From a virus, in the IMG/VR virus record IMGVR_UViG_3300046675_000234, positions 1 through 64,000 of that record: 64,000 bases of DNA; one strand, given 5' to 3'. A model generated the notes under the pieces. That model was not told the DNA's origin and did not search any database. It saw only the letters and a list, made by a program, of their open reading frames with translations. A program made the translations under genes and the position numbers. How positions within the stretch are numbered: the first letter of the stretch is position 1; the number at the start of each line of letters is the position of its first letter. Shown piece by piece: positions 18,014 through 22,638 of the stretch.

Positions 18014-18895
18014 TCAGACCTTCTTGATGAACTCGACTATGGGCTGGATGATGAACGGCAGCGCAGAGGTGAGCAGGGCGATCAGGTCCGGCACGCCCAG
18101 CCGGGACTCGACGTAGGCGGCGATGAATCCCGCCACGGCACCGCCAGCCTCGATGGCCAGCTTCTTTGCCCTCCGCTGGCCTTCCACGGTCTCGTGCGCC
18201 GCGTTCGCTGCGGCTATCTTGTCGGCCACGACCTGCTGGGCCTTGGTCAGCACCGCCTGCGCCTTGGCCGTAGCCAGCGGCTCAACCTGCGTCTTCAGGA
18301 GCTGCTCGTGGATAAGTTGCTCGCGCCTGGTCGGCTGCACCTTGCCGGATACCTGGAACGCGACCTCAGCCGCCTTGTTCTCGGGTGCGATGTCAGCCGG
18401 GATCTTCGCCGCGATGGCTGCCGGGATCTTCTGCGCTTCCTCGCTCGCCGCCTTCTGCGCTTCCTCGCGGGCGATCCTGCGCATCTGCGCTTCCTGCATC
18501 CGCTTGATCCTGGCCTGGCGGGACCGGGATGTCACCGGCTCCTGCGGCGGCCTGTACCCGGCCCGAGAGCCGGGACTGCCGCCGCCAATCCACTTGCCGC
18601 CCGGACCCCGCCGCTCGTGCATCCAGGCGTCACTGGCCAGCTCGACAAGCTGGCTGACGAGAGTGTCTCCCGCGAGCTGCTGAAGGATCGTGTCCTCGCC
18701 GTTCACAGGCCCAGTATCCAGCGTCCCCGCCAGCCTGTGAAGCATCGTGCCCGCATCCTGGATCTCGGTCAGCTCATCACCGGTCGCGGTGCTGGCCAGG
18801 CCGCGCACCTGCTGGATAGCGGTCTGCACCCGGCCCGCCGGGTCCTCCCAGGCCCACCGGGCAATGCTCAGTGCCTGCTGTCCGCGTGGCGTCAT
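18014..18895 (-). CDS. Modular head-region protein with C-terminal hydrophobic hairpin
   Basis: VELA + HERRGPGGKW tag, coiled coil, two C-terminal hydrophobic helices. Confidence 0.75.
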   Translation of the reverse strand: MTPRGQQALSIARWAWEDPAGRVQTAIQQVRGLASTATGDELTEIQDAGTMLHRLAGTLDTGPVNGEDTILQQLAGDTLVSQLVELASDAWMHERRGPGGKWIGGGSPGSRAGYRPPQEPVTSRSRQARIKRMQEAQMRRIAREEAQKAASEEAQKIPAAIAAKIPADIAPENKAAEVAFQVSGKVQPTRREQLIHEQLLKTQVEPLATAKAQAVLTKAQQVVADKIAAANAAHETVEGQRRAKKLAIEAGGAVAGFIAAYVESRLGVPDLIALLTSALPFIIQPIVEFIKKV

Positions 18896-21800: not shown

Positions 21801-22638
21801 GCTGCACCTCGATCTCGCGTGGCCCGTTGCCGCTGAAGGCCAGCGCCTCATCAGACGCCCAGCGGTGGTGCCCGTCGATCACGTAGTTATCGCGCGTCAC
21901 CCATATGGGCTCCTTCAGCATGTGCCGGACCTTGGCGTTGCCGCTCTCGGCGGCCTTGGTGATCCCGGCAACGGTGGCGGCGGTGAGCTGGGTCTGGGTG
22001 GCGCGCAGGTTACCGGCCGGTACGCGCTCGTTGCGGACGTCGATGCCGTCGCGCCTGAGCTGGGCACGGAACTCGGCGTCCAGCTCGATGAACTTGTTGG
22101 CCCCGCCCGCCAGCAGGGCGGCCTCGGTACCAGGCAGGGCCGGGCCGTTGAGCTGCGGCATGGCGGTGCGCGGGATGCCCCTGGTCTGCTCGTTGAACAG
22201 CCGGGTGCCCCGCACGCTGATGTTGCCCAGGTCCCAGCCCGGCTCATGACCCCGGCTGTAGCCCTGCGCGGTGGCCTGCCGGTCCACCTCATCGAGCAGC
22301 GGCTTGATCTCGGCCGGGCTGTTCAGCCGGACATGCTTGCCGCTCGCCATCAGCGCCACGGCCCGGCCCATGTCGCCCGCCACGTCGATCGGGTCGGCTG
22401 CCGTGCCGTCGCCCTGCGCCCGTCCGGGCTGCTCCAGCGGCTTGCGCCCGTCCGCTGGCTCCATCGACGGCACCAGCGGGTCGTAACCCATGAACTTGCC
22501 CTGGTAGCCGTGCCGTTCCTGGCCGGGCTCGCTGGGCACCGTCGCGCCGTGCGTCCACCGGCCGCGCGTGTCGCGTTCCTCGTGCAGCCAGCCGGTATGC
22601 GCGAGGTCCGTGGTGAACCACTCCAGCAGCTCGGTCAT
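18892..22638 (-). CDS. Polyvalent protein: ParB-like + glycosylase-like + unknown alpha/beta + HExxH metallopeptidase modules
   Basis: IDGHHRW; WY..ALSPQ..W..N..IDRH..LQAITW; LGIFHD..IDID; HETFH..EEGFTE. Four RDxxGRW tags separate the modules. Confidence 0.8.
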   Translation of the reverse strand: MTELLEWFTTDLAHTGWLHEERDTRGRWTHGATVPSEPGQERHGYQGKFMGYDPLVPSMEPADGRKPLEQPGRAQGDGTAADPIDVAGDMGRAVALMASGKHVRLNSPAEIKPLLDEVDRQATAQGYSRGHEPGWDLGNISVRGTRLFNEQTRGIPRTAMPQLNGPALPGTEAALLAGGANKFIELDAEFRAQLRRDGIDVRNERVPAGNLRATQTQLTAATVAGITKAAESGNAKVRHMLKEPIWVTRDNYVIDGHHRWASDEALAFSGNGPREIEVQRINLPVHLAIPYANQFAQQMGIEARPLGNSTLVESAIPMELGWKFDPFEKRDVRGRWTKTGAGYVKPDPERLRSSRATYKMPGDHPFFQANPVSAAHIVAAYDDSDAQERAQGMRWYADAHNLAKKMDHGDIEKNAGVIAALSPQTGWAVNMLNADRSLDLGRALGPGEGMITQSMQRNAQEAIDGEAADVANSSSKTKAFARLIRYGGDEPGDTSGQVVIDRHAMTVAMGKRIPKKEADKAPIGHDRYYQYVADTYRDAALEISKRGTPVSPHQLQAITWLRQQRINEAEDEAHIGQAETVTASRGGRRLSKGRNTMLRNSWTRWQAEAARHKYELIPGTTGPMSESWANELLIAQVLDFRFDPAEPRDDKGRWVKVPGTGAGKAAESLMPGPRKSQRVRPVITAAEARGNSRPVSFDEYQHIAAKGNQMIDKMKRDSSPIHGMDEYWPEIKGDMYAEVRKPWGGGTIDGHTGSALPQGADKYALSVKPRGMHSISIPEHASYPDFSRAMDQAKDEFRPALERRGFYLGIFHDDDLNRIDIDPVAVVDTPEEVEAIGAYTRAIGGAYHFRTGDGYWPPHVAEGAAMATPDTVHFAGPGQWRSQAEAVQAPEPEDDEGEDEPPTISGQIFQFAPHFNPDELRDRRGRWTRGQREQLNLHKLIRAAADPFVGAPMANEPALKAAVARVATPAAEFVPKAIGGSHEEWNGKVKLFLYSEQKEVLAEMEWDGTMSVASNVAQALQDDMSLPGDVKQPDAFEVILHETFHGAVPEGSAADNKKAYQVFAISQIEEGFTELGATHHAAEFFDQIGIGDRPTPRFPGHTVHEMAVTIDNPEEIANGNGWKHYPTQTKDAQDWVQQIAREEGIQDLGNKAGHARIVELTDEVNRQGAAGKLGIMSQQLAYAMTKDPKLRADNTFMDDLTMKIADAILHQWNTGNPEGAAKQAFGAARAVAIQKVADKQREMAERAA

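Follow-up and report, generated by a model that had tools for sequence, protein, structure and literature searches.

Among the weapons of a phage, polyvalent proteins are thought to be deployed first, yet the loading, separation and delivery of their domains are for the most part a matter of conjecture. In the searched passages of Iyer, Burroughs, Anand, de Souza and Aravind (2017, J Bacteriol; PMC5512222), a C-terminal metallopeptidase is proposed to release the individual domains, and DdrB of phage P1 is cited as combining a ParB domain with a peptidase. P1 DdrB has been detected in the P1 head and P1 DarB bears a 30-residue N-terminal capsid-targeting signal; for DarB, as for the internal proteins (IP) and Alt of phage T4, an N-terminal peptide marks procapsid cargo that is processed by the prohead protease and ejected to counter restriction (PMC9024508). 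In actinobacteriophages, MuF-VIP2 toxin and portal-MuF fusions have been described, together with a Microbacterium phage protein of more than 4,400 amino acids (aa) called 'likely processed, virion associated' (PMC7302621). Here we analyze a 1248-aa protein encoded in the first 64,000 nucleotides of virus record IMGVR_UViG_3300046675_000234, the stretch of DNA referred to below as the window. The polyvalent strategy itself is already known; the domains of this protein are not the catalogued ones, and its joints carry a conserved peptide, here called the header, that is apparently undescribed. New here are the predicted glycosylase fold of the DUF7178 family, a constant terminal domain of predicted gluzincin fold, and a widespread orphan domain. 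Our best reading, to which we give a probability of about 0.6, is a polyvalent protein of the phage type that is packaged in the capsid and probably cleaved and ejected.

Four predicted domains joined by a repeated header

An earlier note on this DNA, made from the letters alone, had read the gene as a four-enzyme polyvalent protein with one enzyme in each tagged module. The open reading frame (ORF) and the motifs it named all lie where it had placed them, and its module coordinates agree with the domain boundaries predicted by AlphaFold2. In window coordinates, the gene and its parts (modules M1 to M4) are:

18892..22638, minus strand: polyvalent gene (P0001), 1248 aa; start and stop overlap the adjoining genes
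22546..22608, minus strand: header 1, aa 11-31, with core RDTRGRW at aa 22-28; W-L-H-E-E-R-D variant
21724..22458, minus strand: M1, aa 61-305; predicted N-terminal alpha/beta extension and ParB/sulfiredoxin core (aa ~196-305)
21859-21876, minus strand: M1 motif DGHHRW, aa 255-260
21622..21687, minus strand: header 2, aa 318-339, PMEL-GWKFDPFEKRDVRGRWTKTG; homology blocks begin at aa 318
20743..21567, minus strand: M2, aa 358-632; all-helical DUF7178 domain with predicted HhH-GPD DNA-glycosylase-like fold
21211-21213, minus strand: M2 residue Lys476
21130-21141, minus strand: M2 motif IDRH, which contains Asp501
20668..20730, minus strand: header 3, aa 637-657, AQVLDF-RFDPAEPRDDKGRWVKVPG; low model confidence
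20053..20625, minus strand: M3, aa 672-862; strongly conserved alpha/beta domain that has no family model
~19980-20025, minus strand: segment following M3, aa ~872-886
19849..19917, minus strand: header 4, aa 908-930, GQIFQF-APHFNPDELRDRRGRWTRGQ; low model confidence
18895..19779, minus strand: M4, aa 954-1248; C-terminal metallopeptidase-like domain of predicted gluzincin fold
19504-19518, minus strand: M4 motif HETFH, aa 1041-1045
19417-19434, minus strand: M4 motif EEGFTE, aa 1069-1074

AlphaFold2 models of the two halves of the protein (alignments A4 and A2) had a mean predicted local distance difference test score (pLDDT) of 81.5 and 86.9, and a predicted template modeling score of only 0.50 and 0.58. 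Four blocks exceed a pLDDT of 90 (aa 61-305, 360-630, 675-860 and 954-1248), and all four headers fall in linker stretches below 50, with a small hairpin predicted at each core. As modeled, the protein is four autonomous domains on disordered linkers. The same joints are seen in evolution: in BLAST comparisons, the homology blocks of 43 relatives begin and end at headers (aa ~15-340, 318-660, 642-930 and 897-1248), and in relative L013 the modules are separate genes, each with a header at its start. Because the predicted domains are separate, the homology blocks break at headers and the genes are split in L013, the modularity is both structural and evolutionary. Of the two outcomes that could have overturned the earlier note, neither was found: the domains do not make up a single fold whose parts depend on each other, and the catalytic-type motifs do not vary across the family. 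The polypeptide thus holds at least two functionally unrelated domains, being made of four, three of them with predicted enzyme folds.

The module repertoire is reshuffled between relatives. Other orders include M2-M1-x-M4 (P0004), kinase-M1-M4 (P0007) and M1-M4 (P0010 and P0011). One relative (P0003) is 94% identical over aa 1-661 and carries a different module of ~160 aa in place of M3, and another (P0002) is 93% identical over aa 1-930 and only 71% identical in M4, where it has an insertion; these two patterns suggest recent cassette exchange at headers. Domains found between the same headers in relatives comprise PI3/4-kinase-like, alpha/beta hydrolase, NUDIX, Arr, ADP-ribosyltransferase, Zeta toxin, topoisomerase I, KptA and 2H phosphoesterase domains, and one relative (P0042) carries ART-PolyVal (PF18760).

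The header is recognized by an R-D-x-x-G-R-W core, present at aa 22, 330, 648 and 921. In the linkers its form is ...Q-h-h-[ED]-[LF]-x-[FW]-x-F-[ND]-P-x-E-x-R-D-x-x-G-R-W-T-+-G, about 25 residues, and the consensus of 159 distinct copies is L-[EG]-[WLF]-x-[FY]-[ND]-P-x-[EQ]-x-R-D-x-[HR]-G-[RK]-W-T-[RK]-G-G. Header 1 belongs to a second flavor, W-x-H-E-x-R-D. The back-translated pattern has four matches in the whole 81.7-kb genome, all within the polyvalent ORF, and its reversed control has none. Across 208 collected relatives there are 161 header cores, compared to 1.85 expected from shuffled sequences, and 26 of the 161 lie within the first 45 residues of their proteins. An acidic-hydrophobic pair occurs 6-14 residues before R-D in 62% of headers versus 19% of background windows (for E-L specifically, 30% versus 3.6%). 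The split genes of L013 begin two or three residues ahead of this pair and therefore place a natural unit boundary immediately before the header, an arrangement consistent with a protease site ahead of a tag that stays on the module. We infer that the header may serve each module as an address, a cut site or both.

That every module has one header, as the earlier note supposed, is true of this protein and its close relatives and does not extend to the wider family, where a strict core lies no more than 75 residues upstream of 14/50 M1, 25/171 M2, 45/162 M3 and 14/42 M4 copies; many of the proteins holding headerless copies are contig fragments or have variant cores.

The extreme N-terminus presents a separate observation. 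Its sequence MTELLEWFT (22612-22638, minus strand) is kept in relatives in which M2 rather than M1 comes first (L012 10001-; L010 402-), so that this end of the protein is apparently constant whatever cargo follows.

Predicted folds of the modules

Curated models recognize little of this protein. DUF7178 was the sole Pfam match of a whole-protein hmmscan at E ≤ 1. Searched member by member, M1, M3 and M4 gave nothing in Pfam, PHROGs or NCBIfam even at E ≤ 1-10, with the exception of a match of M1 to phrog_2859, a family of unknown function. PDB sequence searches with the polyvalent protein and with the M3 profile returned only noise, and none of M1, M3 and M4 had a tblastn match at E ≤ 1e-5 in 50,697 phage genomes.

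M2 is the module with a family name: it matches DUF7178 (PF23802) over aa 374-561 with 121.4 bits against a threshold of 27 (E 5.8e-35), and phrog_3842 with E 1e-31. At E ≤ 0.001 the family counts 559 shorter relatives, and many of these are proteins of 190-271 aa that stand alone. The earlier note had called this module helical; it is indeed predicted to be all-helical, and its model can be described more closely as the two-lobed fold of helical glycosylases, matching the HhH-GPD DNA-glycosylase superfamily and little else. Its invariant residues are K476, D501 and H503 (V-I-D-R-H-A, with IDRH starting at aa 500) and Q556-A-x-T-W560 (in LQAITW, from aa 555), D501 being conserved in 51/51 and K476 in 49/50 aligned relatives. 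A profile alignment by hhalign pairs K476 and D501 with K120 and D138 of Escherichia coli endonuclease III (EndoIII), setting G-x-K-x-x-x-F...V-I-D-R-H-A against G-R-K-T-A...V-D-T-H-I, at a probability of 1.4%. PF00730 (HhH-GPD) had no match in the whole genome at E ≤ 10 and matched in 14/14 control genomes. A DUF7178 homolog, gp22 of Microbacterium phage Cece, is already labeled 'glycosylase' in GenBank. From its modeled fold and conserved residues, M2 is probably a DNA (or nucleotide) N-glycosylase, possibly with lyase activity.

M4 was called a zincin in the earlier note, and its HExxH...E motif is intact. Its predicted model has the zincin catalytic fold and matches gluzincins only. H1041, E1042 and H1045 are invariant in 59/59 relatives, and E1069-E1070-G-F-T, 24-25 residues past the second His, is kept in ~60/61. 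We take the E-G-F context and its spacing to resemble the third zinc ligand of peptidase family M1 enzymes (N-E-G-F motif), an analogy by which the downstream Glu of the module would be its third zinc ligand. Because GxMEN is not conserved (only W-x-G is kept in the family consensus) and the Pfam model of peptidase M1 does not match, we regard the module as gluzincin-like (thermolysin/M1-like) and not as a member of peptidase family M1. In 39 of the 42 proteins that have M4, it ends within 25 residues of the C-terminus, and it therefore resembles a constant domain for processing or anchoring more than an effector that can be swapped.

The proposal that M1 has a ParB/sulfiredoxin (Srx) domain agrees with both its predicted fold and its DGHHRW motif. 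In the model, aa ~196-305 superpose on PadC, Atu1540, SerK, KorB and SbnI, and the top ParB and sulfiredoxin matches reach Foldseek probabilities of 0.95-0.99. D255-G-H-H-R-W260 is invariant in 52/52 aligned relatives, as is Q215 in the motif R-A-T-Q. Phosphate-binding motifs of the superfamily are GxxRxxA in ParB, GGCHR in Srx and DGxHR in nuclease-like members, and DGHHRW is presumably the equivalent of the Srx and ParB motifs. No curated model (PF02195 ParBc, ddrB-ParB) matched at E ≤ 1, and the SerK model was found only below threshold (E 0.017). At the level of predicted fold and motif, M1 is a ParB/Srx domain. Such domains elsewhere bind or hydrolyze nucleotides or nick DNA, according to the searched passages of PMC5512222, and by analogy M1 may have these activities.

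M3 is alpha/beta, as had been noticed, with a predicted order (pLDDT > 90) of two helices followed by beta-beta-beta-alpha-beta-beta-alpha-beta-beta. A scan of 1.84 billion representatives with aa 655-1248 (M3 and M4) returned 466 clusters at E ≤ 0.001; among the matches listed, most align to M3 with 45-65% identity, and the proteins range from 150 to 3,500 residues, often with M3 as the last domain. Invariant positions are W743-G-G-x-T-x-D749, T752-G, Y763, H812-D813, D820-x-D822-P, G-G-A-Y847-x-F and W-P-P-H859, a pattern that, judged from sequence, looks like an acidic- and histidine-rich active site and makes it plausible that M3 is an enzyme. M3 has no model in Pfam, PHROG or NCBIfam and no PDB sequence match. 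It was folded only together with M4, whose matches filled the fold lists, and no row of these covers M3; an ESM Atlas search with M3 returned only unnamed viral clusters with scores < 0.8. In BFVD the matches are small uncharacterized phage proteins (probability 1.0, template modeling score up to 0.69, aligned module not specified). Of the 'four enzymes' of the earlier note, three modules accordingly have predicted enzyme folds (M1, M2 and M4); a count of four is not established, since neither a fold nor a chemistry can be assigned to M3.

Motif-based candidates for M3, namely macro, ADP-ribosyltransferase, pol-beta nucleotidyltransferase and primase-polymerase, were considered; none was supported, and all were dropped. 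The segment following M3, [HT]-[FW]-x-G-P-G-Q-W-[RH]-S-x-A, is conserved in many relatives and is predicted to form a short helix. M2 followed directly by M3 is the commonest two-module pair, found in at least 42 proteins of 326 relatives, 13 of them with a header between, and the two modules may act together.

Gene context and proposed delivery

The source record is 81,691 bp long, of which the window is the first 64 kb, has direct terminal repeats and is rated 100% complete in IMG/VR; its G+C is 0.64-0.72. The polyvalent ORF is real sequence, a 100% identical protein being encoded on independent metagenome contigs (L005 and L006). In the tblastn search of phage genomes, isolated-phage matches, all to DUF7178 homologs, were confined to Streptomyces, Microbacterium and some marine phages, which makes it likely that the host is an actinobacterium. 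The surrounding genes form a head module:

28002-29756, minus strand: large terminase
26516..28093, minus strand: Mu-type portal (PF06074 E 4e-28; phrog_113)
25842..26519, minus strand: MuF-like minor head protein, 225 aa (PF04233 E 5.1e-7, 30.9 bits against a cut-off of 29.6)
22638..24200, minus strand: upstream 520-aa head-module gene with one more header (AFNPAQPRDRWGRW), core at 23940-23960
18014-18895, minus strand: 293-aa gene overlapping the polyvalent stop, with a degenerate header (AWMHERRGPGGKW)
15965..17167, minus strand: 400-aa candidate prohead protease/scaffold of the Mu gpI type, an ESM Atlas lead
14313..15224, minus strand: major head protein (phrog_1650 E 7e-72; PF25209)

The ATG of the polyvalent gene overlaps the stop of the gene upstream (TGATG) and its own stop overlaps the next ATG (ATGA). 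Between it and the MuF-like gene lie two genes of 482 and 520 aa, neither assigned, and downstream follow genes of 293, 216, 400 and 168 aa and then the major head protein. The order large terminase, portal, MuF, x, polyvalent, x, x, 400-aa gene, x, major head protein is conserved in relatives L012, L009 and L010. The 400-aa protein has no match in Pfam or PHROG; it scores 0.96 in the ESM Atlas (23/30 matches) against clusters in which 75% of members carry PF10123 (Mu-like_Pro), and as a lead only it is probably a Mu gpI-type prohead protease/scaffold. Relatives fuse the same modules to head proteins: P0036 reads Portal_Mu (aa 11-362), header, M3, header, DUF7178, Zeta toxin; P0033 reads Portal_Mu - ... 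- M3; and in P0043 an S78 prohead protease precedes an M1-like module.

Two further observations concern the neighbors. In the 69%-identical relative L012 (6798-10004), the 482- and 520-aa ORFs (22638-25897, minus strand) correspond to one ORF of 1068 aa; the gene may be split, a programmed frameshift may operate, or the assemblies may differ. Apart from its degenerate header, the 293-aa protein resembles a low-complexity helical protein.

The head-operon position and the relatives that fuse the same modules to head proteins are why we read the protein as capsid cargo. Produced alongside the head proteins from a gene translationally coupled on both sides, it would be loaded into the procapsid and delivered together with the DNA. 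The header would be the address and/or cut site of each module, and the string would be cut into separate cargo proteins by the Mu-I-like prohead protease or by the C-terminal M4. The earlier note had put forward the metallopeptidase as an alternative processing enzyme, and the constant C-terminal place of M4 does suit this role better than that of a cargo effector, with the prohead protease an equally good candidate. Once ejected, M1 might bind or hydrolyze nucleotides and bind or nick DNA; M2 might flip out a base and excise it via Asp501, with Lys476 possibly a lyase nucleophile; M3 would carry out some reaction, probably metal-dependent; and M4 could process the string and possibly proteins of the host as well. 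The targets, DNA and proteins of host or phage, would be acted on early in infection, and gene context, together with the searched passages of PMC5512222, points to a possible anti-defense or host-takeover role.

Several points weigh against this reading. The phage is known from metagenomes alone, and packaging in the virion and cleavage are what we infer for it. For M1, M2 and M4 the assignments come from predicted structures and motifs: Foldseek E-values are no better than 0.09-0.9, the Pfam models of ParB, HhH-GPD, peptidase M1 and MPTase-PolyVal all fail to match, and the profile alignment of DUF7178 with EndoIII is not significant. M3 has no assigned function, the 400-aa gene owes its protease identity to the Atlas lead only, and the header is not found everywhere, as many copies of M1, M2 and M3 across the wider family have no strict one. 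Phage N4, moreover, packages its virion RNA polymerase, a polyvalent protein with a peptidase domain, uncut, and ArdC and TraC1 are transferred at full length (all in the searched passages of PMC5512222).

These precedents open the main rival, uncut delivery of the same cargo, in which a giant multi-enzyme protein is packaged and ejected whole and the headers are flexible docking or spacer elements (for capsid, portal or scaffold) or recombination joints. The lack of a strictly conserved cleavage consensus before the header, E-L standing there in only 30% of copies, speaks for it, and the hairpin predicted at each core would suit a binding epitope. Against this, the same modules exist in L013 as separate header-started genes, so that free modules are evidently functional; the position of 26/161 cores close to an N-terminus, the invariant C-terminal peptidase and the probable presence of a prohead protease gene also argue for cutting. 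We regard whole delivery as unlikely.

The translationally coupled place in the head-assembly operon could suit modules that act in the producing cell or the capsid and are never injected, with the ParB and glycosylase-like modules working on the phage genome at packaging and the peptidase in head maturation. M4, constant and terminal, would then resemble a maturation factor, and the ParB-fold and DNA-binding folds could organize packaged DNA. The free swapping of modules between near-identical phages (P0003 versus P0001) does not sit well with such a role, nor does the exchange for kinase, NUDIX, ADP-ribosyltransferase, Zeta-toxin, Arr and KptA domains typical of conflict effectors, nor the absence of one or more modules from many related phages, and we consider it improbable. 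That the gene encodes an array of MuF-type polymorphic toxins, which a lysogen would turn on competing bacteria, and has no part in infection seems highly improbable: MuF-associated toxin domains are widespread in temperate phages (PMC5576092) and toxin-type domains, ADPrib_exo_Tox and Zeta toxin among them, occur in relatives, but there is no MuF fusion here (MuF is a separate 225-aa gene), no small immunity-like gene adjoins (both overlapping neighbors belong to the head operon), and the record, with its terminal repeats, holds a complete phage genome.

Returning to packaged, cleaved cargo, a bolder version can be proposed tentatively. The header would be a portable 'load-and-cut' signal of the heads of Mu-like (and other) phages that frees any downstream domain as ejectable cargo, which would account for the free exchange of cassettes at headers; DUF7178 would be a base-excising glycosylase aimed at a host or defense-made DNA mark; and M3 would represent an undescribed enzyme family in hundreds of phage lineages. 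Taken together, this is possible, with the odds somewhat against it. The clean anatomy (four domains, a header in each linker, a terminal peptidase and natural variants) makes the load-and-cut idea directly testable, and it offers a first functional handle on two orphan families, DUF7178 and M3, the latter, highly conserved and with no model, being a good target for structural and functional work. If it proved to be a general packaging signal, the header could be used to load chosen proteins into capsids, as with the T4 and P1 signals.

Comparison with known systems

As in the polyvalent proteins of Iyer and colleagues, several unrelated enzyme domains lie on one phage polypeptide encoded among late or virion genes, and the repertoire is rapidly shuffled in relatives. 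The closest single parallel to P1 DdrB is the pairing of a ParB/Srx-fold domain with a C-terminal zincin, and the relatives with M1 and M4 only (P0010 and P0011) have the DdrB layout. Unlike those proteins, this one is not matched by the ddrB-ParB, MPTase-PolyVal, LPD, PBECR or ART-PolyVal Pfam models (hmmscan, E ≤ 1); M4 is by prediction a thermolysin/M1-like gluzincin and not of their MPTase family, and M2 and M3 fall outside their Pfam models. A conserved header between modules is a further difference, as it is absent from the passages of PMC5512222 on cleavage, processing, linkers and ParB. In the literature searched, which largely excludes subscription journals, neither the header nor DUF7178 is described.

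For M2, the comparators within the HhH-GPD superfamily are Ogg2/Tm1821, MagIII, EndoIII, MutY and AGOG, together with Qng1/DUF2419, which has the glycosylase fold and acts in queuine salvage. It differs from the HhH-GPD glycosylases in lacking significant sequence or profile similarity and a clear G-x-G hairpin, in its longer K-D spacing and in being part of a predicted virion protein.

The header at the N-terminus of stand-alone modules recalls the N-terminal signals of T4 IP and Alt and of P1 DarB. It departs from them in being repeated within one polypeptide, once per module, where its roles in targeting and cleavage would be presumptive, and in a sequence that is different and much more conserved. 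With the MuF- and portal-fused effectors (PMC7302621; PMC5576092) the locus shares the attachment of enzymes or toxins to head proteins in phages of high-GC Gram-positive bacteria, relatives fusing its modules to Mu-type portals and an S78 protease; here, in contrast, the four modules form a free-standing gene between MuF and the candidate protease, with no structural domain.

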